A stretch of 38,179 nt of DNA from an uncultured Bacilli bacterium (GCA_944358225.1 CALVQP010000001.1:1-38179), one strand, 5' to 3'; positions 408-22,668 are shown, counted from the first letter of the stretch. Notes: a model not told the origin generated them from the letters alone. A program made the numbers and translations.

Positions 408-788
408 ATGATTTATAATTTGTGCTTTTTTGGAATTTTGCTTGTTATAAGCTTGTTAATATTTATTATTATGTATTTGCGTAATATCAAGAAAAATAGA
501 CCTAGTAAAATAGGAAGTATCAACTATCTAATTTCCAAGTTTAATTTGGATAAGAAAAAATTAAATTACAAGTTTTTAGCTTTTATAGCTAGTATTACAA
601 ATGCTTTTATTATTTCTTTTACATGTACTGTAATTAGTATCTTACCGCTTGATTTAATTTGGCAAATGTTAATTGGCTTTGTAATGCTTTTTATTCTAAT
701 ATATTTATTCTATGAGTTAATTGGTAGATATTGTTTAAAGAAAGGCTGGAAGAAAAATGGAACTAAATCATCAAAAAATCGAAAGTAA
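408..788 (+). CDS. small integral membrane protein (about three hydrophobic helices), unknown function
   Basis: ORF of 126 aa with GAAGGA 7 nt upstream of the ATG. It has three long hydrophobic stretches. It sits between the T-box terminator and leuS and overlaps the leuS start by 32 nt. Confidence 0.55.
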
Positions 789-3579
789 ATGGCAAAAATA
801 TTGGGAAGAAAACGAAACTTTTAAAACTGATATTTATGATTTCAGCAAACCTAAATACTATGTTTTAGATATGTTTCCTTATCCTTCAGGTGTTGGTCTT
901 CATGCTGGACATTGTGAAGGATATACGGCTACAGATATAGTTTCTAGAATGAAACGTATGCAGGGATATAATGTTTTACATCCTATGGGCTATGATTCTT
1001 TTGGATTACCAGCTGAACAATATGCAGTCCAAACGGGAAACCATCCCGATGGATTTACGCAAAAGAATGTTGCTTATTTTACGGAACAATTAAAATCTTT
1101 AGGATACGATTATGATTGGACTAAAACTTTGCAAACAAGTGATCCTAAATTTTATAAATGGACACAATGGATATTTAAACAACTATTCAAGGATGGTTAT
1201 GCCAAGTATGTTGATATGCCAGTTAATTGGTGTGAAGAGTTAGGTACAGTTTTATCAAACGACGAAGTTATTGATGGTAAAAGTGAGCGTGGTGGTTATC
1301 CAGTTGTGCGTAAAAATATGCGTCAGCTATGCATCGATCAAGTTGCTTTTGCTGAAGCGTTACTTTCTGGCTTGGATGAACTTGACTGGCCAGAGTCTAC
1401 CAAAGAAATTCAACGCAATTGGATTGGTAAAAGTATTGGCGCTCATGTTGATTTTAAAGTCAAAGGCTTTGACGAAAAATTTACAGTTTTTACTACGCGT
1501 TGCGATACTTTATACGGAGCAACTTATTGTGTTTTAGCTCCTGAGCACAAATTAGTGGAAAAAATTACAACTTTAGAGCAACAAAAAGAATTAAGGACTT
1601 ACCAAAAAGCTAATGCATCTAAAATATATTTAGAGAATATATAATTAAATAAAGAAAAAACTGGTGTATTTACAGGTGCTTATGCAATAAATCCTGTCAA
1701 TAATAAAGAAATACCTATTTACATAAGTGATTATGTCTTAGCAAGTTATGGTACTGGTGCAATAATGGCTGTTCCAGCACATGATACTAGAGATTACGAA
1801 TTTGCCAAAAAATTTAATATTCCCATTATTCAAGTTTTAGAAGAAGAAACTGGTACTAAAGTAGCAGGTGAAACCAAGAAAAAATCTATTGTTGCAATTT
1901 TATACGATGAAAACCAAGATAAATACTTAACATTAAATTGTCATGATCTAGGTGGTTATTTATTTATTGGTGGAACCGTAAAAGATGATGAAGATCCTCT
2001 AACTTGTGTCAAAAGAGAAATAGCCGAAGAAACTGGCTATACTGATATAAGACTTATTAGAGAACTACCCAAAATAAATCATCACTATTATGCTAAAAAT
2101 AAAGATATCTATTTTAATACTGAAGCAACAGGATATTTCTTTGCTCTTAATTCTTCCAAAAAAGAATCCTTAAAATTAGATGCTGATGAAGTATTTGATA
2201 TAATTTGGCAAACTAAAGAAGAAATTCTAAAAAATGTAACTGATCAGTTACATGCCAAAACGTTCTTGTACGCTTTAAAAGATACAGCTATGACAGAAGA
2301 TGGAATTCATATTAATTCGGAAATTCTTAATGGTTTAAATAAAGAGGAAGCTATAACTAAAATGTTAAAACATTTAGAAGAAATTAAAGCTGGTTCTAAG
2401 CAAGTTAATTACAAATTTCGCGAATGGATATTTGCTCGTCAAAGATATTGGGGAGAACCAGTACCTATAGTACACATGGAAGATAACACTGATATTGTCT
2501 TAGAAGATGAACAGTTGCCTCTTATTTTACCTAAATTAAATGACTATAAAGGTAAAAATGGCCAATCACCTTTAGAAAACGCTATAGAGTGGAAAAATTA
2601 TGTTTCTAAAGACGGTAAAAAAGGAAAAAGAGAAACATCAACTATGCCTGGAAGTGCTGGCTCTAGCTGGTATTATCTTCGTTATATCGATCCGCAAAAT
2701 GATAATATTTTCTGTGATCCTAAGTTAGCTAAACATTGGATGCCAGTAGATTTATATATGGGTGGTCCAGAACATGCTGTAGGACATTTAATTTATTCGC
2801 GTATTTGGAATCACTACCTATATGATAAAGGATATTCTCCCGTTAAAGAGCCATTTAAAAAATTAGTGCATCAAGGTATGATACTAGGAGAAAATGGAAT
2901 AAAAATGGGAAAACGTTATCCAGAGTATGCTATTGATCCTAAAGACATTGCCAAAAAGTACGGAGCTGATACTTTAAGATTATACTTAATGTTTATGGGA
3001 CCGATTGAAGCTAGTAAACCATGGAGTGCCAAAGGCGTAGAAGGGGCTTACAAATTTGTGCAAAGAGTATTTAGATTTTTTACTGATGCGAGTAAAATAG
3101 TAGAAAATAACGATGGATCTTTGGATAAAATCTATCATGCTACGGTAAAAAAAGTTACTAATGATTTTGAAGCTTTAGCATTTAATACGGCAATTAGCCA
3201 ACTAATGATTTTTGTTAATGAATGTTATAAAGTAGGTTATTGCTATAAAGAATATGCTTTAGGATTTATCAAAATGATTAGTTGTATTACACCACATGCG
3301 GGGGAAGAAATGTGGGAAATCATGGGTCAAAAGGATACCATTGCTTATGCATCTTGGCCAAAATATGATGAAAGTAAAATTATTGATAAAGATGTAAATA
3401 TTGCTGTATCTATTAATGGCAAGTTAAGAACTACATTTAAAGTACCAATAGATACATCTAAAGAAGAGTTAGAAAAACTAGCTCTTGCTAATGAAAAAAT
3501 TCAAAAATATATCCAAGATAAAACAATTGTTAAAATAATCGTAGTTGTTAATAAAATAGTTAATATTGTTTTAAAATAA
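757..3579 (+). CDS. leuS: leucine--tRNA ligase, interrupted by one in-frame TAA (1642-1644) and carrying a ~150-aa Nudix-domain insertion (about 1840-2283)
   Basis: ORFs 757-1644 and 1765-3579 are in the same frame, and codons 1645-1764 read [40 protein letters not shown], which is continuous LeuRS sequence. Class I motifs are present: HAGH (HIGH-like), [23 protein letters not shown] and a KMGKR (KMSKS-like) loop. The Nudix box lies at 1972-2040. Confidence 0.92.
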
Positions 3580-5371: not shown

Positions 5372-6685
5372 ATGGAACAGACTTCTTTATTTGATATTCC
5401 TAAATTTGAACCCCTAGCATCAAGAATGCGCCCTCGGAGTTTAACTGAATTTGTTGGTCAAGCGCATTTAATTGGTGAAGGTAAGATTTTGCGTAGAATG
5501 ATTGAAGCTGATAATGTTTCATCAATGATTTTCTGGGGACCTCCGGGAGTAGGGAAGACAACATTGGCGCGAATTATCGCTAATGAAACTAAATCAGATT
5601 TTATTACGTTTTCCGCAGTTACTTCAGGTATCAAAGAAATAAAAAAGGTAATGGAAGATGCCGATAATAATAAAAGATTAGGAATTAAAACAATCGTATT
5701 TGTTGATGAAATTCATCGCTTTAATAAAGCTCAACAAGATGCATTTTTACCATTTGTTGAGAAGGGGTCAATTGTTTTAATCGGAGCAACCACGGAAAAT
5801 CCTTCCTTTGAAATTAATAATGCGTTACTTTCTCGGTGTCGTGTTTTTGTCTTAAAAGAATTATCAACTGAAGAAATTTTAGTATTATTAAAAAGAGCCA
5901 TAAGTGATTCTCGGGGCTTTGGCAATCAATCAGTAAATATTTCTGAAGAAAACTTAAGTATTATTGCTGCCTTTGCAAATGGCGATGCAAGAAGTGCGTT
6001 AACTAGTATTGATATGATTATTACTAATTCTTCACTAACAGAAGATGGATCTATCAATGTCACTAAAGAACTTATCGAAGAATGTTTAAGTAAAAAAACT
6101 TTACTTTATGATAAAAAGGGTTCAGAACACTATAATATCATTTCGGCTTTACATAAATCGATGCGTAATAGCGATCCTGATGCTGCTGTCTATTGGTTAG
6201 CTCGCATGCTAGAAAGCGGTGAAAATCCTTTATATATAGCTAGACGTTTAATTCGTTTTGCCTCTGAGGATATTGGCCTTGCTAATTCTAATGCTTTAAA
6301 TGTTGCCATAAATGCTTATCAAGCATCTTTCTATAACGGTATGCCAGAGTGTAATCTTAATTTGGCTCATGCTGTAATATATTTAAGTATGGCACCCAAG
6401 TCTAATGCAGTCCTAAAAGCCTATGAAAAGGCTAAACATGATGCTTTAAATACTATAGATGAGCCCGTTCCTTTACACTTGCGCAATGCTGTAACCAAAC
6501 TAGACCAAGAACTAGGGTATTCCAAAGATTATAAATATGCGCACAACGAAAAAAACAAAATTGCTAAAATGCCTTGTTTACCAGGAAATTTACAAAACCA
6601 AAGCTATTATGAACCAACTACTAACGGTCAAGAAAAAGCCATTAAAGATTTGTTACAATCAATTAAAAATTTCAAGGCCAAATAA
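5372..6685 (+). CDS. rarA: replication-associated recombination protein A (MgsA/RarA AAA+ ATPase)
   Basis: Walker A GPPGVGKTT, Walker B VFVDEIHRFNK, and the C-terminal MgsA region YWLARMLESGENPLYIARRL. I prefer the ATG at 5372 (AAAGGAAG upstream, MEQTSLFD...) to the ORF-track start at 5285. Confidence 0.92.
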   Translation: MEQTSLFDIPKFEPLASRMRPRSLTEFVGQAHLIGEGKILRRMIEADNVSSMIFWGPPGVGKTTLARIIANETKSDFITFSAVTSGIKEIKKVMEDADNNKRLGIKTIVFVDEIHRFNKAQQDAFLPFVEKGSIVLIGATTENPSFEINNALLSRCRVFVLKELSTEEILVLLKRAISDSRGFGNQSVNISEENLSIIAAFANGDARSALTSIDMIITNSSLTEDGSINVTKELIEECLSKKTLLYDKKGSEHYNIISALHKSMRNSDPDAAVYWLARMLESGENPLYIARRLIRFASEDIGLANSNALNVAINAYQASFYNGMPECNLNLAHAVIYLSMAPKSNAVLKAYEKAKHDALNTIDEPVPLHLRNAVTKLDQELGYSKDYKYAHNEKNKIAKMPCLPGNLQNQSYYEPTTNGQEKAIKDLLQSIKNFKAK

Positions 6686-10237: not shown

Positions 10238-10313
10238 GCTGAAATAGCTCAGTTGGTAGAGCAATTCACTCGTAATGAATAGGTCGCAAGTTCAAGTCTT
10301 GTTTTCAGCACCA
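10238..10313 (+). tRNA. tRNA-Thr (anticodon CGU)
   Basis: Canonical GCTGAAATAGCTCAGTTGGTAGAGC D arm, anticodon arm ATTCA-CTCGTAA-TGAAT, T arm GCAAG-TTCAAGT-CTTGT, and an encoded CCA. Confidence 0.9.
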
Positions 10314-10332
10314 GTAACGAATCTGTTCGAAC
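10308..10332 (+). repeat. attL-like direct repeat overlapping the 3' end of tRNA-Thr(CGU)
   Basis: GCACCAGTAACGAATCTGTTCGAAC matches 14393-14417 at 24 of 25 positions (20 bp exact, 10313-10332 = 14398-14417). Confidence 0.8.
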
Positions 10333-10799
10333 TATTCGAACTTTGATATATAGAAATCAATCGAAATGATTGATTTTTTTCTAAACACGAAAAAAATCAT
10401 AAGAAAGGTTGGTGTTTACGATAAATGTTATCAAGAAAGAAATTGATGTAGAAGAATCGTTAAGAAAGAGATTAGAAATTATATGTATTTTTTGTAATAC
10501 TACTCCAACTATTATAAATGGTAGTATTAGAAAAATAGATAAAACTAACCTAGTATGTACCTTATGACGCACAATAAAAAAATATATGAATTGCTTTATT
10601 TTAAAGAAATTATTGATGATTATAATATAGAACTAAAAATAATCGTATCGTAAAATAAATAAAATCATTTGTGTTCTTAAAACTAAATAAATAATGCTTT
10701 TATTAGAAGTTTAAAAATTAGAATATGAGAAGTTGCGAGAGATATGTTTAACTACATATCTTTTTTATTGTTTTTAAAGAAAGTGAGATAGATATTATT

Positions 10800-10925
10800 A
10801 TGAATTTAAATTATGCAATATTTAGAAGTGAACCAATTAATACTATAAATGATTTAGCACAAATTGGGTCACATAACAAACGCGAAAAAAAGACTTATAA
10901 TTCAAATCTAGATATAGATATTTAG
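10800..10925 (+). pseudogene. N-terminal stub of a Mob/Pre-family plasmid recombination/relaxase gene
   Basis: MNLNYAIFRSEPINTINDLAQIGSHNKREKKTYNSNLDIDI resembles the Mob_Pre N-terminus (M..YA..R..K......L.....HN.RE....N.DID, remembered from pUB110 Pre and pMV158 MobM). It stops after 41 codons. Only an acidic tail fragment follows, in another frame. Confidence 0.6.
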
Positions 10926-11104
10926 AACATCTTTATATGAAGAAGATTATGATTATGAATATGATGATTACGAAGAAGATAAAAACAAAGATGATGATAT
11001 GGATATGAGTTTGTAAACTTGCAAAAATATATAAAGGAGATTATTAAGTATCTAATGCATAATGAAAAAATATGATAAAATATATATTGATAGGAGTAAT
11101 AGTA

Positions 11105-12262
11105 ATGAAGAAAAAGATTATTCTTACATTATGTATTATATTAGTTTTCGTAGCAGGGTTATTGATTGGTACTTTTGTTTTATCTAAAAATAAAGAAATT
11201 GAAACTAATGAAGAAAAAATTACAAATATTGATATTAAATATAATAATGGAGAAAAATATTATATTATTAAAGATGATTATAAAGGTGCATATGACTACC
11301 AAGAAATAGATTTATCGAACGATTATGGTAATTATGAAGAAGTAAACGATAAAATTAAATTATTTAATACTACAGAAATACTTAACTATAGTCAATATTC
11401 TAAGTTTTGTGAAAAATGGAACTTAAAAAGGAAATATAATGATACTAGTAAAAATTATATGATAGTAGCATACGCTTCTTATGGACAGCCAATTGTAGAA
11501 GCAAGACTTGCAAATGCTATTGAAGACGATGGGAAAGTAGTATTATATATGTGGGAAAATACTCGCGGTGTTACAGCAGATATTGGAGCTTATTTTCTAG
11601 CCATACCTGTTAAACTAGATACATATCAAAACGAGATAAACATTGCTTATACTAATGAGGAATATAATAATATTGTTAAATATGGTTCTATTCAAGACCC
11701 AAGTACAATGACAGTAGATAAACCAATTATATATATTTATCCAAAAGAAGAAACAAAAGTAAATATAAAATTATTAAATTCATCATTATTAACTACCTCA
11801 TACCCTAAATATAATAACGGATGGAATGTTATTGCACAACCAGATGGAATATTAAAAGAAATCGAAACTAATAAAAATTATTATGGGTTATATTATGAAG
11901 GAAAAAATCATTATGTAACTATGAAAAATGATGGATTCGTAGTTAAAGGTGAAGATACAATAGAATTTTTAGAAGAAAAACTTGAAATACTAGGACTAAA
12001 CGAAAGAGAAATAAATGAATTTATAATATATTGGCTACCTAAGTTAGAAAACAATAGATATAATTATATTAGATTTGAGACTTTAGAAGAAATTGAGAAA
12101 TATATGCCACTTGAAATAACACCAAAACCTGATACTGTTATTAGAGTCGTTATGGATTATAAACCATTAAATAAAAAAATAAGAATAGAAGAACAAAAAT
12201 TAACGCCTCAAAAACGAGTTGGATATAGTGTTATTGAATGGGGTGGAAGTGAAATAAAATAG
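11105..12262 (+). CDS. membrane-anchored hypothetical protein
   Basis: ORF with TAGGAG 9 nt upstream of the ATG at 11105 (MKKKIILTLCIILVFVAGLLIG, signal anchor). I recognise no domain. Confidence 0.6.
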   Translation: MKKKIILTLCIILVFVAGLLIGTFVLSKNKEIETNEEKITNIDIKYNNGEKYYIIKDDYKGAYDYQEIDLSNDYGNYEEVNDKIKLFNTTEILNYSQYSKFCEKWNLKRKYNDTSKNYMIVAYASYGQPIVEARLANAIEDDGKVVLYMWENTRGVTADIGAYFLAIPVKLDTYQNEINIAYTNEEYNNIVKYGSIQDPSTMTVDKPIIYIYPKEETKVNIKLLNSSLLTTSYPKYNNGWNVIAQPDGILKEIETNKNYYGLYYEGKNHYVTMKNDGFVVKGEDTIEFLEEKLEILGLNEREINEFIIYWLPKLENNRYNYIRFETLEEIEKYMPLEITPKPDTVIRVVMDYKPLNKKIRIEEQKLTPQKRVGYSVIEWGGSEIK

Positions 12263-12563
12263 TGAGAGTGTAAAAAATTTTGTGTAAAGTTACCAATCTA
12301 TGGTAATAAAGATATTTGAGATTGATTAATATCAGTCTCTTTTTGTGACCCTAATAATAGCATAAATTAAATAATTTTCAAAGATCAATTTAATCGTTCA
12401 GGATATAAAATGTTTAATTCATTATAAATCATATCCCAGTTAGGGTATTTTACACATTACACACACTAAAGATTATACAACCATTTTAGTCTCGAAGTTT
12501 CTTTCGAGACTTTTGTATTATTAAAGTATTTGCTATAATCGTTATATAGGGCAGTGATAGTTT

Positions 12564-13049
12564 ATGAATTTTTATCCGATAAATCATGAAGCAGTTTTTG
12601 AAGATATAGAAAAGTTTGATTATCCTAATCGAAAGATAGGAGTTATTGCACATATTGAAAATGATAAAGGAGAAATTTTATTACAACAAAGAGGTGTTAA
12701 ATCACGTGATGAGAATGGAATTTATGAAGATATTGGCGGGAAAGTTGATACAGATGATTTTAGTTTTAAACAGGCAATTATTAGAGAAATAAAAGAGGAA
12801 GCAGGAGATGATGTAAAACTAGAATTCAATGGGAATTCAATAGGTATTTATCATTGCTACAAAAATAATATTAATTGGATATTTGTAATATATTTTGTTA
12901 AATATATTAACGGAACTATTAAGATAATGGAGTCAGATAAGTGTTTAGGATATAAATTTTTTACTTATAAGGAAGCAATTAATTCAGACTTAGTTACTGA
13001 AAGTTGTAAATATTTAATTAAGAGTATAAGAAATAATTACAAATGTTAA
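12564..13049 (+). CDS. Nudix hydrolase
   Basis: Nudix-box-like GGKVDTDDFSFKQAIIREIKEEAGD (the REUXEEXG core is intact; the first Glu position is Asp). The 161-aa size is typical of stand-alone Nudix proteins. Confidence 0.75.
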   Translation: MNFYPINHEAVFEDIEKFDYPNRKIGVIAHIENDKGEILLQQRGVKSRDENGIYEDIGGKVDTDDFSFKQAIIREIKEEAGDDVKLEFNGNSIGIYHCYKNNINWIFVIYFVKYINGTIKIMESDKCLGYKFFTYKEAINSDLVTESCKYLIKSIRNNYKC

Positions 13050-13310
13050 TTTTTTTTACAATAATATTTGTTATATCTTTGTTGCAAAACTGTTAACAAA
13101 GTGTTCAGTGTTTTAAAATTGTGTGATAAGATGTGCTTGTATTGAGGCAGAAGTACTAACTAAAATTAGGGTTTGGTATCTAAAATCTCAAGACATCAGA
13201 TTGATAGTTACTTGAATTTTTCAAGTAACAATAGAAAATGTTAATAAAACTTGTTAAAATTTCTTTTTCATAATATTATGTTTAGCCTTTTCTAGAAAGA
13301 AGGTATATCT

Positions 13311-14312
13311 ATGAATAAAGAATTGGTTAAAAGAAATAAACTAATAAGAGAAAACAGCCATTAATACCTTCTAATATTTTATATTCAACCTACGAGAGCA
13401 ATGGTGTATTCAAATATGTTTTAAAAGCAAAGGATGTTCAAATTATTTAAATGGTTTTTGTATAATGTGTGATTATGGCGTTAGTACTAATATCACTCCT
13501 AAAGAGTTAGAAATTGCCTTTGATAATGCGTTAAAAGAAAGTAAAGATGAAATAAAGGTTTTATTATTAAATTCATATGGTAGATACTAGATCAAAATGA
13601 AATAAGTGAAGAATGTTTTAATTTATTATTAACGAAAATAAAAGATACAAATATAAAAAACATTATCTTTGAAACTCATTACACGACAATAAATGAAAAA
13701 AAACTCAATTTAATTAAAAAGGCTCTTTTTGATAAAAATATAATCTTTGAATTAGGATTAGAAACTTCTAATCAACAAGTTAGAGAACATAATTTACTGA
13801 AATATATAGATAATAATAAATTTATTGATACAATTCAATTGATTCATTCATATGGTATGAAAGTAATTACTAATATCATTGTTGGCATTCCTTTCTTAAG
13901 TGAAGAAAAACAAATCAAAAATGCAGTAGAATCTATAAGATGGTGTTTTAATAATGATGTTGATGAAGTGGATTTATTCCCAATGAATATAAAGCCTTAT
14001 ACTTTATTAAGAGAACTTTATGAAAAAAAAGAATACGAAACTATTTCACATTGGATGCTAATCGAAGTTCTTTCAAAAATACCTGAGAATTATTTAAAAG
14101 ATATTTATATTGCTTGGTATGGGAATAGAGATTTAGAATATGATAATGACTTAAAGGCTATCTTTCCAACATCATGTGCTAATTGTAAATATAATTTATT
14201 TAAATTTTATGAATTATATTTGAAAAATAAAGATTCAGCCTATAGAAAATCTTTAATAAATGATTTAATATCAAATAAAGAATGTAACTGTTACAAAGAA
14301 ATATTGAAATAG
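13311..14312 (+). pseudogene. radical-SAM family gene with at least three frameshifts
   Basis: Pieces in three frames join into one protein: MNKELVKRNKL.. / ..KQPLIPSNILYSTYESNGVFKYVLKAK / GCSNYLNGFCIMCDYG...LLLNSYG (Cys triad) / ILDQNEISEECFNLLLTKIKD...ETHYTT...ELGLETSNQQVREHNL...IHSYGMKV, continuing into ORF 13839-14312. Confidence 0.75.
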
Positions 14313-14392
14313 GTTAGTTTTATGTTAAAATAATATTGTAATTGATTATCAATCTACTTTTATGCAAGAGTTCAAAATAGATTCTGTAAATC

Positions 14393-14417
14393 GCACTAGT
14401 AACGAATCTGTTCGAAC
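14393..14417 (+). repeat. attR-like direct repeat (partial copy of the tRNA-Thr 3' end plus flank)
   Basis: GCACTAGTAACGAATCTGTTCGAAC, 24 of 25 identical to 10308-10332. Confidence 0.8.
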
Positions 14418-14549
14418 AGTGCAAAATTTAAATATATATAAGTCTAAAATATGACTAATTTTTATTCTTTTAAAAAACCTAGAGGAGTTAAATGTTTTGT
14501 CATAGTAAAATATAATTGACTTATATAAAAACTATAGGGAGTGATATCT

Positions 14550-15074
14550 TTGGAAAAATTAACTAATAGTTACTTAATTAATAAGTTAGAAGACGGAAAT
14601 AATTTAAATATTGTTTTATTATCACATAATACATACTGGCCTGAGATTCAAAAAATAGATAATAATTTTGAAAATTGTAATGTTGTAGTATTGGGCAGTT
14701 CTACTTCCTACATAAAATTAGCAGATATTCAAAGTCGTAATCAAATTGAAAATAGTGATTTGATTATTTTCTATAGTTCAGAATATTATAATGAACAGGA
14801 ACTTGCTGAATTAGAAGATATTGCCTTTAGAATATCAACTGATAAAAATAAAAGAGTTAGCATAGGGTATTTATATTGTCTTCCAATTGAACAAAGACCA
14901 CATGCAAGTATATCGAAACAAATTCAAATCATTAGTTTTAAAAATGAAGAAGAAGTTATCGAAACAACATATCCAACACCATATTTTTCAACTTCTGACT
15001 TAACTGCACTTACTTTAGTTGTAGCTGACAATTATGATATAATCAAACAACAGAAGTTAGAAAAAAAGTTGTAG
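14550..15074 (+). CDS. hypothetical protein (alternating beta/alpha pattern, possibly Rossmann/flavodoxin-like)
   Basis: The ORF track starts at GTG 14541, but AGGGAG (14535-14540) sits 9 nt before TTG 14550, which I prefer. Hydrophobic strand-like segments are NIVLLSH, NVVVLGS and DLIIFYS. I recognise no family. Confidence 0.5.
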   Translation: MEKLTNSYLINKLEDGNNLNIVLLSHNTYWPEIQKIDNNFENCNVVVLGSSTSYIKLADIQSRNQIENSDLIIFYSSEYYNEQELAELEDIAFRISTDKNKRVSIGYLYCLPIEQRPHASISKQIQIISFKNEEEVIETTYPTPYFSTSDLTALTLVVADNYDIIKQQKLEKKL

Positions 15075-15245: not shown

Positions 15246-15274
15246 TTGAAAGAAAGAACCTACAGTGTTATACT
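15246..15274 (+). promoter_or_regulatory. sigma-A type promoter of the 958-aa/222-aa operon
   Basis: TTGAAA (15246-15251), 17-nt spacer, TATACT (15269-15274). AGGAG lies 9 nt before the ATG at 15323. Confidence 0.5.
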
Positions 15275-15322
15275 AACAACTAACAAATTAATTTAAACAA
15301 GCATTAGCAGGAGCACAAAGTT

Positions 15323-18199
15323 ATGAATTTTGAAACATTAATAAACAAACTACCTATTTTACCTATGAATAAAGCTATTAAGCTATTGGAAGATTATCAA
15401 GAAAAAATTGGCTTTAAAACCTTTGCAGAGCAACAAAGAGCTTTAGATATTTTCATGCATAAAAATAATGTTTTAGAAAAGATAAAAAAAGAAGTTTTTA
15501 ATGAAGCATTTATGAATTTAGCCTTTATGGTTAAAGATAGATCTTTATGGAGTAATGCTGCCTTTGAAAATATTAAAAGATATCCCATGATTATTTGGAT
15601 AGAATGTATCGGTGTAATGAAAGAGGAGCAAATAGTGTCCTTACTTAATAATTATGGTAAAGAATTACCATCTTCTTTAATTGGTTTATGCGTTATTAAT
15701 TTACCAGAAGACACACAATTAAAAGCATTAGAACAATATAAAAAATATCTAAAAGTCGATGATGGGCTATTTTCTAATCTTTATTATTCTTTAAGCGATA
15801 AAGCCAAACTAAAATTAAAAGAATTCTTTCCTAACAAAATAGCTGATGATATCTTATTAGAATTAGAAGATTTAAATGAAGAAGATATATTGGCAAAACT
15901 AACCACCGAACATGAAAGTTTAATGAAATTAGCTGCTGATGATTTGGTAGAATTTATACTTTTAAAATCCCGCAAATTAGATACTTTAACTAAATTCTTA
16001 GAAATATTTAGTGAAAAAATAAATGAATGCTCCATATTTAAATTCAAATTGCTAATTACTAGATACAGGTATTTAGCTAATTATAGAAGTAATCAGTATT
16101 TTGATGATGAAGAACAAGAAAGTAAAATGTTAACTGACAGTGCTTTGTTCCAATTATTTAAAAATAAATTCCGTCAGATTGGTGTTGAACAAACCCTTTT
16201 ACTATTCGATAATAAAACATTTTACAATAGTAATAAATTTACAGCTGATGTTATATTTGAATTTTTAGACATTGCTTATTCTAGTAATGATCTATCCAAA
16301 TATATTAACGACGAAACTAAAATAGAAATTATTACTAGATTTGTAAAAAAATGTAATAATCAAGATTACTCCCTTGCAGATTTAAAAAAATTAGTAAAAG
16401 ATATAGGAAAGGATGGAAAATCAAAATTAATATTTGATGATTATATTGAAGCAATGATTGCCTGCGGAAAACTTTTAAAAGAAAATGTTTTAACGTCCCA
16501 AGATCCTTTGTTTTTAGAATTAAGAAATAAATTTAGTACTGATTTATTAAAAAGAAGTCAAAAAGATGGTACATATAAAGAAAATATCTCTTTAAATGGT
16601 ATATTTTATAGATTAACAAAAGGTAGCATGCCCTTTGAAAAAGTTTATATAACCAAAACCTATAAAGGGTTAATTTACTTAACTAAATGTGGACAACTAT
16701 TTGATAATGCTGATTATATAACCCAGTTTTTAACAGATGAACAACTTGCTAAACTAAATATAACCCCCGTTTTAAAATGGAAAAATAATATTAATAGGAC
16801 TAACACCAAGAAAGATAGTTTATCTTTTGAACAAAGAATGGGATTACAATTATTATGTTATTTTGGAAAAGATAAAGCTAAATATTTATTAGAATCTAAC
16901 ATGCAAGGTAATAGAATGGAAAATTTATTTGATGGTTTAAAACACGAAAATATTTCTATAAACGAAGATGGTACACCAAATATAAATCAAGAACTTGTTA
17001 ATTTTCTTTTTAAAAAAGGAGCGATGAAAGAATCTAATTCTGTAATTAATAGAATGATAGGAGGGGATATTGCTCCCTTTGAAAAATATTTTCCAGAATT
17101 TTGTAATTCTTTTGAAAAAGTAAAAAAATCATGCAACGGAATTTTAAGTGTTAAAAGAATTGTTAAATATTTTGAAGATATAGAGTTGCCAATAAAACTA
17201 AAACCAGATGAAATAGAATTTAAACAAGCTTTAAAAGAAATGAATACAATAGATCTAACTTTATTATCAGAAGCAATAGGATTATGCAAAGATGCAAGAA
17301 ACAGAGGCTATTCATCTATACCTAAAGTAGAGGGAAAGTTAGGAGATTTTACATATAAAATATTAGATTTAACTGATCCCATGGCAATTGCTGTAGGGTA
17401 TTTAACACATTGTTGTTTTGTAGTTAAAGGACTATCTTATTCAGCTTTAAAACATTCCATGCAATCAAGAAATGGAAGAACGTTTGTTGTTTATTACAAG
17501 GGGCGCTTTCTAGCTCAAAGTTGGGTATGGCGTAATGGTGATGTCATTTGCTTTGATAGTGTTGAAGCAAATAGATCATGTCGTGAAATATACAAAGATG
17601 ATATTAAATTAGTTGATGTATATAAAAAAGCTGCCAATCAAATATTAGATATTTCTCAAGATCAAGAAGATGATAGCCAAAAAGTTAAAGTTGTCACTGT
17701 TGGTCGCTCTGATGATACATTTGACGATTTAAAAAATGTCGAAATTGCTGTCCCTAGACCATTAGAAAGTGATGTTTACGTTCATGATTCACATAGACAG
17801 CAAATATTAGCTGGAGCAATTCCTAAAAAACCAAGATATGGTATTGTTGGCGCTCAATATAAAGATCCTCGCCAAAAAGTAGTATTTATTAATGATGTAG
17901 AAAGTACTGATATAGAAACTTTAGATGAAATAATAGTTAATATAAATTCTCTAAGGTATCAAATTAATAAAGAAGAAACTCCGTTAGATTTTACTATTTA
18001 TAACAAAATAATTTCCGGAGATGGCTGGTATATTTTAGTTAAATATGATGGAACTATTGAAAGCGCAGCTTTAAACAAAAACGAAGATGTAAAAATTGAG
18101 TATAATAATTATTTAGCTAGATTTATTGATACTAAAACAATTGATAATAACGAGTCATTTGTAAAAAGATTAAAACCACTAAGTGGCTATAGAAGATAA
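15323..18199 (+). CDS. large hypothetical protein (958 aa): long helical N-terminal region plus a C-terminal His/Cys-motif module
   Basis: Uninterrupted 958-codon ORF with a good RBS. Residues ~665-830 read FTYKILDLTDPMAIAVGYLTHCCFVVKG...RTFVVYYKGRFLAQSWVWRNGDVICFDSVE. This faintly recalls PcfJ-like proteins of conjugative elements (an HC[VC] motif), a resemblance from memory only. No Walker A or nuclease motif is seen. Confidence 0.85.
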   Translation: MNFETLINKLPILPMNKAIKLLEDYQEKIGFKTFAEQQRALDIFMHKNNVLEKIKKEVFNEAFMNLAFMVKDRSLWSNAAFENIKRYPMIIWIECIGVMKEEQIVSLLNNYGKELPSSLIGLCVINLPEDTQLKALEQYKKYLKVDDGLFSNLYYSLSDKAKLKLKEFFPNKIADDILLELEDLNEEDILAKLTTEHESLMKLAADDLVEFILLKSRKLDTLTKFLEIFSEKINECSIFKFKLLITRYRYLANYRSNQYFDDEEQESKMLTDSALFQLFKNKFRQIGVEQTLLLFDNKTFYNSNKFTADVIFEFLDIAYSSNDLSKYINDETKIEIITRFVKKCNNQDYSLADLKKLVKDIGKDGKSKLIFDDYIEAMIACGKLLKENVLTSQDPLFLELRNKFSTDLLKRSQKDGTYKENISLNGIFYRLTKGSMPFEKVYITKTYKGLIYLTKCGQLFDNADYITQFLTDEQLAKLNITPVLKWKNNINRTNTKKDSLSFEQRMGLQLLCYFGKDKAKYLLESNMQGNRMENLFDGLKHENISINEDGTPNINQELVNFLFKKGAMKESNSVINRMIGGDIAPFEKYFPEFCNSFEKVKKSCNGILSVKRIVKYFEDIELPIKLKPDEIEFKQALKEMNTIDLTLLSEAIGLCKDARNRGYSSIPKVEGKLGDFTYKILDLTDPMAIAVGYLTHCCFVVKGLSYSALKHSMQSRNGRTFVVYYKGRFLAQSWVWRNGDVICFDSVEANRSCREIYKDDIKLVDVYKKAANQILDISQDQEDDSQKVKVVTVGRSDDTFDDLKNVEIAVPRPLESDVYVHDSHRQQILAGAIPKKPRYGIVGAQYKDPRQKVVFINDVESTDIETLDEIIVNINSLRYQINKEETPLDFTIYNKIISGDGWYILVKYDGTIESAALNKNEDVKIEYNNYLARFIDTKTIDNNESFVKRLKPLSGYRR

Positions 18200-18211
18200 G
18201 GGGATGATATC

Positions 18212-18880
18212 ATGTTACTTTTTGAAAATGCTAAAGAAAGTTTTGAAGCAGCATCATCAACAATGAATAAATATAATTCAGAAAGTGAATTTTATCATAG
18301 ATTAGCTAAAATGATTCCCGATACAGTTGATGTTGATACACTAGTCTTGGCTTTTAAAATAGCCTTTCAAGATGCCTGTCAAAAACAAGAAGAGTATCTT
18401 TCCTTTATATCACTTGTTCCGCATTATGTTCGCCAATGCACATCTTGGGAATTTGCCCATGAATTTAGAAAAAAGTATAATGCTGAAGTCTTAGGACTAA
18501 CTCAAGAAGAATTGCCTGATGTTGATTATGGCTGTAATGAAGTAGAACCAGATGTCATTGATATATCAAATAAAGATAAAAACGAAGTGCTAGCAGCTTT
18601 ATATAATGCTAGTACACCAATAGGTAAAGGCTTTATGCAGTATAATCCTATGCCTTGGACTAAAGAAATAGCTAGTATGTACTTTGAACAATTAAAACAA
18701 GTAGATAATGACGATGTAATAACACTTAAGTGGGTTATGGGAAGACCGTTAAATTGTAAATTTATAGGGGATCTTGTCTATGTCGCCGGATATAATAACG
18801 ATAATGAATGGGGCTTAGCTCAATTAGTAATATCTACCTGTCCTAATATTGAAAGAATAAAAAAGATAAATAATAAATAA
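18212..18880 (+). CDS. hypothetical protein (222 aa), co-operonic with the 958-aa gene
   Basis: AAGGGGA RBS, starting 12 nt after the upstream stop. The C-terminal half carries conserved-looking LAALYNASTPIGKGFMQYNPM ... WVMGRPLNCKF ... GYNNDNEWGLA, which I cannot assign to a family. Confidence 0.8.
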   Translation: MLLFENAKESFEAASSTMNKYNSESEFYHRLAKMIPDTVDVDTLVLAFKIAFQDACQKQEEYLSFISLVPHYVRQCTSWEFAHEFRKKYNAEVLGLTQEELPDVDYGCNEVEPDVIDISNKDKNEVLAALYNASTPIGKGFMQYNPMPWTKEIASMYFEQLKQVDNDDVITLKWVMGRPLNCKFIGDLVYVAGYNNDNEWGLAQLVISTCPNIERIKKINNK

Positions 18881-18916
18881 TATTTTGAGTTTAGGTAAAA
18901 ATAAAACTTGACAAAG

Positions 18917-18954
18917 AAAAAGTGAAAATGTGTTATCCACAGATTCACTTTTTT
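18917..18954 (+). terminator. intrinsic terminator of the 958/222-aa operon
   Basis: AAAAGTGAA (18918-18926) pairs with TTCACTTTT (18944-18952) and the T-run ends at 18954. The loop is 17 nt. Confidence 0.5.
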
Positions 18955-19194
18955 AACATAAAATAAGGAACCTCCTCTAAAAAAGTATTATAATATACTT
19001 AACAATTTACATAATAAAATATTCATAACTAAACAAAAAATTGGAGCTGTTTTCCTATGAATAATTCTACTACCAATATATATGAAAAGACAAGAAAAAT
19101 TGTAAATTTTTCAATTGAAAAAACCTAAGCTCAAACTAATATACACTTTTAAAATGCCTTAAAAAATATTATAATATGTATAGGAGTTAATATT

Positions 19195-20376
19195 ATGACT
19201 ATTGAAGAAAAAAACAACTATATTGAAGAGTATATAAAAAATATTGCTGAAAAAAATCCTGATATTTTTACCCAAGCAATAATTCAAAGGGTTATTGAAA
19301 AATTTAGAGATAGTGAGGAATCTTTAGAGGAATTAATTTCAAAAATTAACTTAATTGCTAATGAATTTTTAGAGAAAAATATTGAACAAAGAAAATATTT
19401 ACAAATAATGAGCCAGAAATTCAACGATTCGAATTATCAGGTAAAAAATATTATTAGTATTGATATATCGAATTTAGCTTATTCTCAAATGGAAGATTTA
19501 TTTTTTCATTATAGTTGGAAAAAATATTTGGAATTCTATGATAAAAATGGTATGGTTCCAGTTATTGGGGAAAATTCTAAAGGAATAGATCCGGAAACGA
19601 GTATATTTTTTTCGAAAGGTATAGAGGGGGTTCTTGAATTATGGGATGTTTGGCTAAAATGGAGACTAGATAGACAAAATAATCCAAAATATCAAGGAAA
19701 TACACCAGAAGAAATGCAAAGAACTATCAACAGATTTATTTCAGGTGATATAACAGAAGATGAACGCAAAAAATGGTATTATTGGATTGAATTTTTTAAA
19801 GATAAACAATATTTGCAAAATGAAACTATGATGAAAAAATTGTTTGAATATCAATATACTGAAATGATAAATAGTGATTATCTTATAATGGATTTAAAAG
19901 AAAATGAAGAATTTAGATACGACCAAATTGATATAAAAAAATTATGGGTAATACAAGAAGCTAATAAAAATGAAAAAGGTATTAATCCGTTTAGAGCAGC
20001 TATGTATGGAGCATATAGTGACTTTACAACTCCGATTGCTGATAAATGGAATATGCAAACAATTCCGGGTAAAAATATAGTTATTGAGCCAAATAGATTA
20101 AAAAGATTAAGTATTCATGGAAAAACTGATGTTTATTCTATTATTAAATTTATGTATGATAAATATAAAACTGAAATACCAAAAGAACAACAAGTGAAAT
20201 TTGACATTTTAGATGATTATATTAAATATATTGAAGAAAAGAAAAATCTAAGAATAGAAGATGAAATGTTAAGAAAAACTGATGAATTAGAGCAATTGCT
20301 TTCTACTATTGAATCAACTTCTTTATTATCTAGTCAAGAAACATATAGTACGTATAGTCAAAACCCACATAGATAA
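19195..20376 (+). CDS. hypothetical protein (393 aa)
   Basis: TAGGAG RBS and a TATAAT about 20 nt upstream. I recognise no motif. The same frame stays open again from 20389 to 20694 after two stops. Confidence 0.75.
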   Translation: MTIEEKNNYIEEYIKNIAEKNPDIFTQAIIQRVIEKFRDSEESLEELISKINLIANEFLEKNIEQRKYLQIMSQKFNDSNYQVKNIISIDISNLAYSQMEDLFFHYSWKKYLEFYDKNGMVPVIGENSKGIDPETSIFFSKGIEGVLELWDVWLKWRLDRQNNPKYQGNTPEEMQRTINRFISGDITEDERKKWYYWIEFFKDKQYLQNETMMKKLFEYQYTEMINSDYLIMDLKENEEFRYDQIDIKKLWVIQEANKNEKGINPFRAAMYGAYSDFTTPIADKWNMQTIPGKNIVIEPNRLKRLSIHGKTDVYSIIKFMYDKYKTEIPKEQQVKFDILDDYIKYIEEKKNLRIEDEMLRKTDELEQLLSTIESTSLLSSQETYSTYSQNPHR

Positions 20377-20800: not shown

Positions 20801-22003
20801 ATGGATTATAGTAAGCTTAAAGTTGATATTTTACCCAACCAATTTTTAAATAAAGATGAAACATTTAACAAAGATGAAGCAATTAAACTAGCGGGTAAAA
20901 TAGCGGGAGTATGTTACGACAAAGAGGGATTTGCCCATCTTGAAAACGAAACCGAAGAAAAGACTACGCGTAGAATCAACTTAACATTAAATAATGGGCA
21001 TCATAGTGTTTACGACCATATTACAATCAATTTTAACTTCCAAAATATACCTAAGATTTTAGCGATGGTGCTTAATAATGAACATCAGTATACAGCAAGT
21101 GAAAAATCAGCAAGATATACACCAGTTGTTAGACAAGAAAATTCAATTATAACTGCAGATGAAGAAATATTATATAATAAGTGGATTGACATATTCAAAG
21201 TAAAAATTAAATCACAATATAAAAATATCTATAATGATGCTAAAATTCAAAAATTAGCTCAAGAAAATGCTAGATATTTAGTAACTGTATTTATGCCAAC
21301 TCAAATAATTTATTCAACTTCTTTAAGACAAATCAATTATATTGCTTCTTGGATGCAAGATTACATTCATAATGCTGATATGAACAAAGATTTTAGCATA
21401 AAATTATCATCATCTATGCAACAATTATTAATTCAACTGGAACAATTAAATGTTTTGGAGCCCAGACTTTTTACAAACGATAAAAATCGTACTCTATCAC
21501 TATTTGGCTGTAATTTAGATAAAAAAGAAGAAATTTTTAAAGATGTTTATTCATTTGTTTACAAAGGATCATTTGCCCACCTTGCTCAAGCACATAGACA
21601 TAGAACAATTGCTTATCAAATGGAAATGTTAAATGAAAAAGAGTACTTCATACCACCAATTATTGCTAGTGAGAAAATGTTGGTTGATGAGTGGCTTAAT
21701 GATATGCAAATAGTATCTTCTGTTCATCCGCAAGGAGAACTTGTTAGAATTAGTGAAATGGGTAAATACGAAGACTTTATTTTAAAATGCAAAGAAAGAT
21801 TATGTTCGCAAGCCCAACTTGAGATAATGTACCAAACAAGACAAAACCTTTTAAAATATCAAAAAGCTTTACAAGAAACAAATCATCCACTTGCTAAAGA
21901 TATTGAAAAATATTCCCATGGAGCAAGATGCACTTTTCCTGATTATAATTGCCCATCTGATTGTCAATTTAAAGAAGGAAAGAATTTAACGAGGAGGATA
22001 TGA
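20801..22003 (+). CDS. thyX: long (400 aa) ThyX-family flavin-dependent thymidylate synthase-like protein, internally duplicated
   Basis: The N-half has GHHSVYDH (HxSVxEH-like), ASEKSARY (SxRY) and ENARYLV...SLRQINYI, but NEH in place of RHR. The C-half has FVYKGSFAHLAQAHRHRTIAYQ (RHR at 21596-21604), EYFIPP and CSQAQLEI (AQWEI-like). Confidence 0.7.
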   Translation: MDYSKLKVDILPNQFLNKDETFNKDEAIKLAGKIAGVCYDKEGFAHLENETEEKTTRRINLTLNNGHHSVYDHITINFNFQNIPKILAMVLNNEHQYTASEKSARYTPVVRQENSIITADEEILYNKWIDIFKVKIKSQYKNIYNDAKIQKLAQENARYLVTVFMPTQIIYSTSLRQINYIASWMQDYIHNADMNKDFSIKLSSSMQQLLIQLEQLNVLEPRLFTNDKNRTLSLFGCNLDKKEEIFKDVYSFVYKGSFAHLAQAHRHRTIAYQMEMLNEKEYFIPPIIASEKMLVDEWLNDMQIVSSVHPQGELVRISEMGKYEDFILKCKERLCSQAQLEIMYQTRQNLLKYQKALQETNHPLAKDIEKYSHGARCTFPDYNCPSDCQFKEGKNLTRRI

Positions 22004-22668
22004 AAAAAGGAAAATTAATTGTCATTGAAGGCGCTTGCGATGGAATTGGCAAAACAACCCAATATGAATTATTGCATCAGCATTTTCTAAATGATAGTCA
22101 AGAAATTGCTAATCATCACTTTCCATCTTATCAAACATTTCAAGGGGCACCTGTTGAGAAATATTTACAAGGAGAATTTGGACAACCTAATGAGTTATCT
22201 CCATATTTTATAAATAGTTTGTATGCTACTGATAGAGCAGTTACTTGGTATATGAATTTAAAACAATTATATGAGCAAGGAAAAATTATTTTACTTGATA
22301 GATACACTACTTCTAGTCTAATTTATCAATCAGCATTAATTGAAGATATTACAGAAAAGAAAAAGTTTATTGATTATGTTATTGATTTTGAATATCGAAA
22401 AATTGGTATTAAAGAGCCAGACAAGGTTATTTTTTTACACGCTCCATTTAATTTAGTTACTAAACTGCGAGATGCTAGAAAACAAAATGAGGGAATAGTT
22501 AATGATATTCATGAAAGAAATCTAGATTTTATGGAAATTGTTTATAATAATGCTATGTTTGTAGCCGATTATCTTTCTTGGGATATGATTGCCTGTAATG
22601 ATGGTGAGCAAATGAAAAAAATTGATGATATTCATAATGAAATATATACATTAGTAAAAAATAGGTAG
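22000..22668 (+). CDS. tmk: thymidylate kinase-like nucleoside monophosphate kinase
   Basis: P-loop IVIEGACDGIGKTT (one residue longer than the usual EGxDGxGKxT), FPSY...YL, LYATDR and LLDRYTTSSLIYQ (DRY motif). Its start overlaps the thyX-like stop (ATGA). Confidence 0.75.
   Translation: MKKGKLIVIEGACDGIGKTTQYELLHQHFLNDSQEIANHHFPSYQTFQGAPVEKYLQGEFGQPNELSPYFINSLYATDRAVTWYMNLKQLYEQGKIILLDRYTTSSLIYQSALIEDITEKKKFIDYVIDFEYRKIGIKEPDKVIFLHAPFNLVTKLRDARKQNEGIVNDIHERNLDFMEIVYNNAMFVADYLSWDMIACNDGEQMKKIDDIHNEIYTLVKNR

Follow-up and report, generated by a model that had tools for sequence, protein, structure and literature searches.

What is made by a two-gene operon whose products match no named protein family? 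The question is raised by a 38,179-nt stretch of DNA from an uncultured Bacilli bacterium (GCA_944358225.1, CALVQP010000001.1:1-38179; the whole stretch is called the window here). In it an earlier note, made from the sequence alone, had singled out adjacent genes for proteins of 958 and 222 aa as the best candidate for an undescribed system. The answer we favor, at a probability of about 0.4, is a transferase-like enzyme of two subunits that acts in the cytoplasm and is inherited as one cassette in uncultured low-GC gut 'Bacilli'. The cytoplasm is proposed because neither protein has a likely membrane-spanning or signal segment (maximum 19-residue Kyte-Doolittle means of 1.44 for the large protein and 1.21 for the small one). 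The label 'undescribed system' is fair at the family level, where the pair represents two new sequence families; at the level of the fold, the pair comes nearest to a known kind of enzyme, GNAT-like transferases that have a helical scaffold and an accessory subunit.

An operon of two unnamed families

Both proteins and their neighbours were searched against Pfam, PHROGs, PADLOC and NCBIfam, and the pair gave sub-threshold noise only. Profiles built from 69 homologues of the large protein and 58 of the small one matched no PDB sequence even at E ≤ 10. Further PDB sequence-profile searches, with alignments of the large protein's C-terminal module and of the small protein's domain (both described below), gave nothing or spurious matches to histone H4 and an ephrin receptor. 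A literature search returned nothing relevant to either protein or their motifs. Thus the proposal that neither belongs to a nameable family holds for Pfam, NCBIfam, PHROGs, PADLOC and PDB. Homologues are nevertheless plentiful, all of them without annotation or name: 86 for the large protein, at 42-73% identity, and 126 for the small one, at 50-100% (50-80% barring one identical copy), so the small partner is the more conserved of the two.

The operon was described as self-contained, and its parts bear this out (Table 1). The two open reading frames (ORFs) lie where they had been placed. The TAA stop codon of the large gene (18197-18199) and the ATG of the small gene (18212) are separated by 12 nt, and the second gene has its own ribosome-binding site (RBS), GGGGA. 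At the site of the large gene's RBS, orthologous loci have G-rich RBS-like stretches. Promoter-like sites are not enriched in this AT-rich region (55, against 48.7 ± 7.8 in shuffled sequences), so the hexamers of the TTGAAA-N17-TATACT promoter are no evidence by themselves. The promoter call is supported by positional conservation instead: a TTG-type -35 and an extended -10 of the TGnTA..ATAAT type keep their position 5' of the large gene in 13 of 13 aligned loci, beyond chance. The hairpin terminator after the small gene was likewise recovered, with a folding energy of -15.3 kcal/mol (z = -4.31) that none of 200 shuffles equalled.

The coupling of the two genes is strict. Co-occurrence across genomes, which the earlier note had left to be checked, was found without exception in every further locus with enough sequence (L001-L013, L020, L021 and L025-L029): in 20 of 20, both genes lie on one strand, and 2-15 nt separate the large gene from the small one directly 3' of it. 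The distant branch L029 keeps the arrangement, with proteins of 1211 and 248 aa, the small one 36% identical to that of the window. The relatives come mostly from metagenome-assembled genomes (MAGs) named 'uncultured Bacilli bacterium', from mouse, rabbit and other samples, with a few bins inconsistently labelled. SpoIID and CotE in related contigs suggest that the hosts are spore-forming Firmicutes.

One assembly, GCA_011262095.1, holds three different copies of the pair, L008, L010 and L028, on contigs of 274, 107 and 141 kb. The large protein is 57% (L008) and 45% (L010) identical to that of the window, and the small protein of L028 is 47% identical; either the assembly mixes related organisms or the cassette has paralogues.

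The pair is conserved about as well as its housekeeping neighbours. Between the window and L009 the large and small proteins are 63% and 66% identical, with 71% for thyX and 75% for tmk; between the window and L005 they are 68% and 77% identical, with 53% for UvdE. Vertical inheritance of a selected function fits this pattern better than a fast-turnover defence island does. Comparison of the loci revealed no conserved flanking gene around the pair elsewhere. The neighbours are (i) yqeH and a mraZ-rsmH-divIC-pbp cluster, the latter 3' of the pair, in L008 and L021; (ii) Amidase_3, TetR and MMPL genes in L007, L012, L013 and L020; (iii) NUDIX and radical-SAM clusters in L010 and L011; and (iv) thyX/tmk in the window and L009. 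The first sizeable gene called beyond the pair is Amidase_3 in L012 (behind a called ORF of 25 aa), in L013 and in L020, and a homologue lies 3' of the pair in L007; SpoIID is also present in L012.

A helical solenoid carrying a GNAT-like module

The large protein gave a confident AlphaFold2 model (predicted local distance difference test, pLDDT, 86.7; predicted template-modelling score, pTM, 0.70). The model agrees with the reading of the sequence as about 650 aa of helical protein followed by a compact module. Helices extend to about residue 659, and the solenoid that they form gives weak Foldseek matches, to PPR, PUF and HEAT-type repeats (best E = 0.085). Next comes a conserved alpha/beta module of catalytic appearance, with strand b1 at residues 676-680, helices at 686-714, strands b2-b4 at 718-749, helix a3 at 763-781, b5 at 790-796 and b6 at 827-831. 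A C-terminal alpha/beta subdomain ends the protein and accompanies the module in distant relatives, where its hidden Markov model (HMM), 'cterm', matches stand-alone module ORFs (L014-L017).

The module belongs to a large superfamily. When the family profile was searched exhaustively with HMMER, 853 clusters, each a representative at 50% identity, matched at E ≤ 1e-3, and 454 also at E ≤ 1e-10. Nearly all of the 853 match through profile positions ~645-800, some of them to ~940. These relatives are 300-1900 aa long and carry the module near the C-terminus, behind helical N-terminal regions that differ and are often repetitive. No Pfam, NCBIfam or PADLOC domain was found in 35 distant relatives, barring one weak SHOCT match. 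The relatives that could be traced sit on long cellular contigs, the only named one coming from a 'Bacilli bacterium' MAG. Searches of mobile DNA with the module found no tblastn match in 50,697 phages (INPHARED) or 72,556 plasmids (PLSDB), and pattern scans of IMG/VR, with a relative's module and with the degenerate pattern WVWRN..CFDN, did not find it; the contigs on which it was seen here were all of cellular type and from AT-rich bacteria.

Two further features of the relatives were seen. Long ones (1000-1900 aa, e.g. P0303) contain tandem helical repeats of ~110 aa, with a recurring F-L-S/N-x-D/N-A-P-x-E-L-K..F/Y-Y, that no Pfam model covers. In the distant relatives L014 (9992-9994) and L016 (1041-1043), an in-frame TGA divides the helical N-terminal part from the module ORF; the TGA of L016 aligns with a Cys TGT codon of L014 (NNYDEKLKK*H and NNYDEVLEKCH). 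These TGA codons could be due to chance, to pseudogenes, or to selenocysteine insertion or read-through.

To find the residues under the strongest constraint, the window module was aligned with 17 of its distant relatives, a sample of the 853 clusters. Invariant in all 18 sequences are R661, P667, C698, R719, S733, R737, E748 and G794, while H696, C697, H711, C743, W734 and W736 vary. Two motifs of the module had been called invariant-looking, THCC (17405-17416, residues 695-698) and WVWRNGDVICFDSVE, and both lie in the large protein as claimed. In the first, C698 is indeed invariant, but H696 and C697 vary across the superfamily. With THCC reduced to a single invariant cysteine, a Cys/His metal site is unlikely, and a zinc or other metal site built from H696, C697, C698 and C743 was dropped. 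The WVWRNGDVICFDSVE motif holds the invariant R737 and E748, and the invariant S733 immediately precedes it. The a1-a2 loop and strands b2-b4 hold a cluster of invariant residues (Cys, Glu, Ser and three Arg) that looks like an active site for a polyanionic ligand. We also rejected an R-S-E ADP-ribosyltransferase reading of R719, S733 and E748: the three lie on consecutive strands, 14-15 residues apart, and no ADP-ribosyltransferase structure was matched by Foldseek.

More than half of the top 50 Foldseek matches of the module in PDB are GNAT acetyltransferases, with probabilities up to 0.98. The AlphaFold2 module follows the GNAT order of elements up to b5, with a coil in place of a4 and with b6 present. 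The order b1, a1-a2, b2-b3-b4, a3, b5, b6 is shared with PaiA (1tiq), VipF (6wqb), GCN5 (5trm) and SACOL1063 (5jq4), and the hairpin 'FVV.D..G.IVAQSW', read in the sequence, recalls the usual b2-b3 hairpin of GNATs. Unlike those enzymes, the module shares its polypeptide with a 640-aa solenoid and a C-terminal subdomain, and we know of no GNAT family that its invariant Cys, Glu, Ser and three Arg would match. The models thus give moderate support to a module that is GNAT-like in fold, and we do not file it as a GNAT.

Two kinds of known enzyme offer comparisons. In NatA, a eukaryotic N-terminal acetyltransferase complex, the helical TPR subunit Naa15 wraps the catalytic GNAT Naa10. The combination of a big helical-repeat scaffold, a GNAT-like unit and a small partner is alike here, as an architectural analogy only; scaffold and module are one polypeptide in our case, and there is no sequence match or significant structural match to NatA. 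FemX/FemABX, Leu/Phe-tRNA-protein transferase (LFTR) and ATE1 have GNAT-like folds in which the acetyl-coenzyme A (CoA) P-loop is missing, and their donor is polyanionic. The substrates of Fem enzymes are peptidoglycan precursors, and genes for the cell wall turn up repeatedly around our pair. However, those transferases have two tandem GNAT-like lobes and different conserved residues, and no profile match to them was obtained here; Foldseek of the large protein found no aminoacyl-tRNA-dependent transferase except MprF, at a probability of 0.04.

The same evidence can be read without catalysis. Two thirds of the large protein is solenoid, the module has no canonical GNAT cofactor loop, and cell-wall and division genes recur around the pair (Amidase_3, mraZ-rsmH-divIC-pbp and, in L012, SpoIID; VanY, UppS and MurG in the window). 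All this would suit a scaffold or assembly factor of the cell envelope, of division or of sporulation, with the module as a binding domain. We consider this quite improbable, since a Cys, a Glu, a Ser and three Arg kept invariant in 18 very distant sequences are typical of an active site rather than a binding surface. The links to neighbouring genes are moreover few and could arise by chance in small genomes, and the flanks are otherwise not conserved.

The small partner and its relatives in phages

The small protein is acidic (pI 4.8) and also gave a confident AlphaFold2 model (pLDDT 89.3, pTM 0.84). It consists of an N-terminal five-helix domain, found in operon-type partners only, and a C-terminal alpha/beta domain of ~95 aa, which we call sdom. 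The three signatures pointed out in the small protein, LYNASTPIGKGF, GRPLNCKF and YNNDNEWG, proved to be conserved motifs of this domain. No Foldseek match in PDB was better than E = 2.4, and five of the 19 weak matches are GNATs. Comparison of the small protein with the module by hhalign gave no relationship, and an HMM search found no fusion of the small protein to distant large relatives.

The sdom has no NCBIfam, Pfam or PDB entry, and its reach extends well beyond the operon. Stand-alone proteins of 93-180 aa, which cover only residues ~112-217 of the small protein, also consist of it: they occur in phages and Priestia megaterium, and 75 loci come from environmental metagenomes, where contigs reach 958 kb. 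The phage carriers include Dulem virus 39 (from lemur gut), Streptomyces phage Gilgamesh (gp28) and Xanthomonas phages, and in the phiCbK-like phages of Caulobacter the domain lies within a 248-aa protein. The stand-alone consensus can be written as VLAALYNAS.PQGMGF.HYDP...FDYLKGRVMKVDL...YDRDNG.GAA.RAI; the set was picked by the pattern AALYN, which inflates the conservation of that motif. A Y-D-R-D-N-G-x-G-A loop is strictly conserved in the stand-alone family. Its R-D-N-G-x-G, which comes after the third strand, fits the motif-A pattern of GNATs, and the window protein has N-D-N-E-W-G there. We treat this resemblance as a lead only; hhalign of the small-protein profile against one GNAT sequence, that of E. 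coli RimI, was not significant.

The phage and Priestia relatives match phrog_12532, a family of unknown function that includes phiCbK gp021-like proteins, in the LYN/P.G.GF region (E = 6e-7 and 6e-5); the sdom of the window itself falls below the threshold. Compared with these relatives, the operon-type small protein adds a helical domain of 100 aa, and N-D-N-E-x-G replaces R-D-N-G-x-G. Stand-alone sdom genes have no conserved neighbours, at most 3-4 of the 75 loci sharing any. In phages the domain is encoded in early or recombination regions, and some of its genes adjoin recT, exonuclease and ssb genes.

A ~95-aa domain shared with such regions of unrelated phages brings to mind a toxin-antitoxin or abortive-infection cassette, in which the small protein would be the cognate inhibitor of a latent enzymatic effector, the large protein, and the phage copies of sdom would serve anti-defence as decoy antitoxins. 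The compact two-gene unit with its own promoter and terminator, found at differing chromosomal sites, would suit such a cassette, as would the independent inactivation of the large gene in L007, L020 and L021, where the small gene is intact. One distant module relative (L014/L015) has HNH, Fic, TnpV and type I restriction-modification genes for neighbours.

We nevertheless rate this explanation as unlikely, and the defence or anti-defence role that had been suggested for the operon did not find support. A search with PADLOC-DB v2, which the earlier note had advised, matched no defence-system model to either protein or to the 35 relatives. Stronger conservation in the small partner than in the large protein would be unusual if the small one were an antitoxin or an immunity protein. 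The pair is conserved about as well as its housekeeping neighbours and is often found among core genes, and the searches of phages, plasmids and IMG/VR did not find the module. The phages that carry sdom infect Caulobacter, Xanthomonas and Streptomyces, and from none of these hosts was a relative of the large protein seen; the stand-alone copies in bacteria have no conserved neighbour. A polymorphic toxin and immunity pair was rejected separately: conservation is highest in the C-terminal module, neither a signal nor a secretion domain is present, and the downstream gene is conserved.

A proposed transferase-like enzyme of two subunits

From the anatomy of the operon, its conservation and co-inheritance, and the fold models, we infer how the subunits might interact and what their chemistry and substrate might be. 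In the two-subunit transferase that we favor, the solenoid would hold or present a macromolecular acceptor, and arginines 661, 719 and 737 would bind an anionic group-donor, for which acyl-CoA, aminoacyl-tRNA and a nucleotide-linked group are examples. Catalysis of the group's transfer would fall to Cys698 and Glu748, possibly through a covalent Cys intermediate. The small subunit would be an obligate partner, made by coupled translation 12 nt downstream; its clade-specific helical domain may dock on the large protein, and its C-terminal domain may serve as a ligand-binding, substrate-binding or regulatory module. An attractive but speculative version has the enzyme use aminoacyl-tRNA in the manner of Fem or LFTR, perhaps on a cell-wall precursor; its appeal stems from the missing CoA loop and the recurring cell-wall neighbours.

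Several observations weigh against this enzyme. The GNAT matches of the module have E values of 0.2-0.7 and target-normalised template-modelling scores of 0.3-0.5, and none reaches E ≤ 1e-3; the Foldseek comparison that had been advised was thus made, and its yield is a weak resemblance to GNATs with no PDB match at that threshold. No GNAT model of Pfam or NCBIfam matches the large protein (E ≤ 0.1) or the 35 relatives (E ≤ 1e-3). The loop between b4 and a3 (residues 749-762), of variable length and sequence and low pLDDT, holds no GNAT Q/R-x-x-G-x-G/A motif. The module profile, aligned by hhalign to the same single RimI sequence, gave no significant match. The distant module relatives L014-L017 have no small partner. 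Finally, the large gene is broken independently, at different sites, in three of the 20 further loci (L007, L020 and L021; Table 1), each time with the small gene intact. Both halves of the disrupted genes remain well conserved; either the disruptions are errors of MAG assembly or the function is dispensable in some lineages. Stop-codon recoding was rejected as the source of these 'split' homologues, since a TGA, a 1-nt deletion and a 2-nt deletion occur at three sites and coding density under code 11 is ~95-100%.

A bolder form of the favored enzyme makes the module the founding member of an unrecognised enzyme superfamily, with a new Cys/Glu/Arg active site on a GNAT-like scaffold, performing an undescribed modification of a macromolecule, and with an obligate partner whose ubiquitous ~95-aa domain phages also encode. 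We think this unlikely. Whatever probability the explanations given here leave over belongs to something else.

The operon lies outside a decayed mobile element

The window, ~27% G+C, carries ordinary bacterial chromosomal genes: leucyl-tRNA synthetase (LeuRS), UppS, MgsA, cyclophilin, UvdE, VanY, two tRNA-Thr, ThyX-like, Tmk, QueH and MurG. A 37-nt direct repeat, 84% identical between its copies, occurs at the 3' end of tRNA-Thr(cgt) (10308-10344) and at 14393-14429. The 4.1-kb segment that it bounds (10308-14429) contains a remnant of the N-terminus of a MobV-like relaxase (~10800-10925), a 396-aa orphan ORF, a NUDIX gene and a possible radical-SAM C-terminal fragment, the last known from a sub-threshold Pfam match only. 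This segment looks like a decayed integrated mobilisable element.

Does the operon belong to that element? The att-like tRNA-Thr repeat and the relaxase remnant upstream would suit an accessory module of a conjugative or integrative element, PcfJ-like and carried as cargo of a tRNA-Thr-linked island. This explanation is largely refuted. The operon had been placed directly after the attR-like repeat, but the distal copy ends 817 nt 5' of the promoter (at 15246), and an unrelated 177-aa ORF (14541-15074) intervenes; lying beyond the repeat-bounded segment, the operon is not its cargo. The idea of a tRNA-Thr-linked accessory island fails elsewhere too: in 15 other loci there is no tRNA-Thr or similar repeat context near the pair, just unrelated tRNA-Cys (L005) and tRNA-Gly (L029) genes, and in other genomes the pair often sits among core genes. 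The suggested resemblance to PcfJ (PF14284) amounts to a loose visual likeness, a Cys-containing motif followed by beta strands. Neither PF14284 nor any other Pfam model matches the large protein, for PF14284 at E ≤ 0.1 (and at E ≤ 1e-3 in the 35 distant relatives), and the tblastn searches of plasmids and phages found no relative. A blastn search of the region against phages returned nothing.

On its other side, the operon does precede the ThyX-like/tmk pair, as had been stated, but with a 393-aa orphan ORF (19195-20376) between. This ORF and the 177-aa ORF were considered as parts of the system and rejected, as neither has a homologue beside the pair in other loci.

Two of the window's other genes are peculiar. 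(i) The LeuRS gene (757-3579) has a single in-frame TAA at 1642-1644 and a NUDIX domain (residues 40-160 of ORF 1765-3579) inserted after an editing-domain remnant. Both are odd for an essential gene and could reflect an assembly error, a pseudogene or read-through. (ii) The ThyX-like ORF (20801-22668 region) encodes 400 aa, of which the Thy1 profile covers residues 26-177 only, and tmk begins (22000) before this ORF has ended. An ORF of this 400-aa form, followed by tmk, also adjoins the pair in L009, at the identities given above. It is possibly a divergent flavin-dependent pyrimidine-modifying enzyme.

Table 1. Features of the operon and of related loci (positions are those of the window unless a locus is named)
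Feature	Position	Strand	Basis and remarks
Promoter	15246-15274	+	scan; -35 TTGAAA, N17 spacer, TG-extended -10 TATACT
RBS of large gene, AGGAG	15309-15313	+	sequence reading; 9 nt 5' of ATG
Large gene	15323-18199	+	ORF listing; ATG start, 958 aa, stop codon included
N-terminal all-helical alpha-solenoid, residues 1-640	15323-17242	+	model; ~40 helices, no strands
Conserved alpha/beta module, catalytic-looking, residues 660-835	17300-17827	+	model; GNAT-like element order
Cys698 codon, second Cys of THCC	17414-17416	+	only invariant cysteine of the superfamily (18-sequence alignment)
WVWRNGDVICFDSVE motif, residues 734-748	17522-17566	+	end of strand b3 and strand b4
C-terminal alpha/beta subdomain, residues 851-935	17873-18127	+	model elements
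RBS of small gene, GGGGA	18200-18204	+	sequence reading; abuts stop codon of large gene
Small gene	18212-18880	+	ORF listing; ATG start, 222 aa, stop codon included
N-terminal five-helix domain of small protein, residues 1-100	18212-18511	+	model; operon-type partners only
C-terminal alpha/beta domain of small protein (sdom, ~95 aa), residues 105-210	18524-18841	+	motifs LYNAS.P.G.GF, GR, YN.DNE.G
Intrinsic terminator hairpin	18916-18954	+	RNA fold; A-tract on 5' side, T-tract on 3' side
Stand-alone sdom family member	L018 5986-6273		
Stand-alone sdom family member	L019 5001-5297		
Stand-alone sdom family member	L022 2983-3309		
Stand-alone sdom family member	L023 2986-3336		
Stand-alone sdom family member	L024 2917-3663		
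Large-gene disruption	L007 11855-11857		TGA nonsense codon; locus of MGBC119928
Large-gene disruption	L020 ~5872-5887		1-nt deletion; locus of SRR10097267
Large-gene disruption	L021 ~5915-5930		2-nt deletion; locus of GCA_965645805.1

Implications

At present the operon is a well-delimited target for generating hypotheses, not a discovery, and its hosts are uncultured gut Bacilli. Its two proteins stand in sizeable families that every library tried has missed, and the operon is the one place where these families are locked together, which gives a handle on the function of both. If the pair were a toxin-antitoxin cassette, a new defence system would be at hand, along with candidate antagonists already encoded by phages. 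If the module founds a new superfamily, the pair could reveal the role of the phage and bacterial mini-domain, e.g. binding or mimicking a cofactor or substrate, and may point to a new axis of host-phage conflict. And a GNAT-like transferase that works through a cysteine, should the module prove to be one, would represent a new branch of a very large enzyme superfamily.

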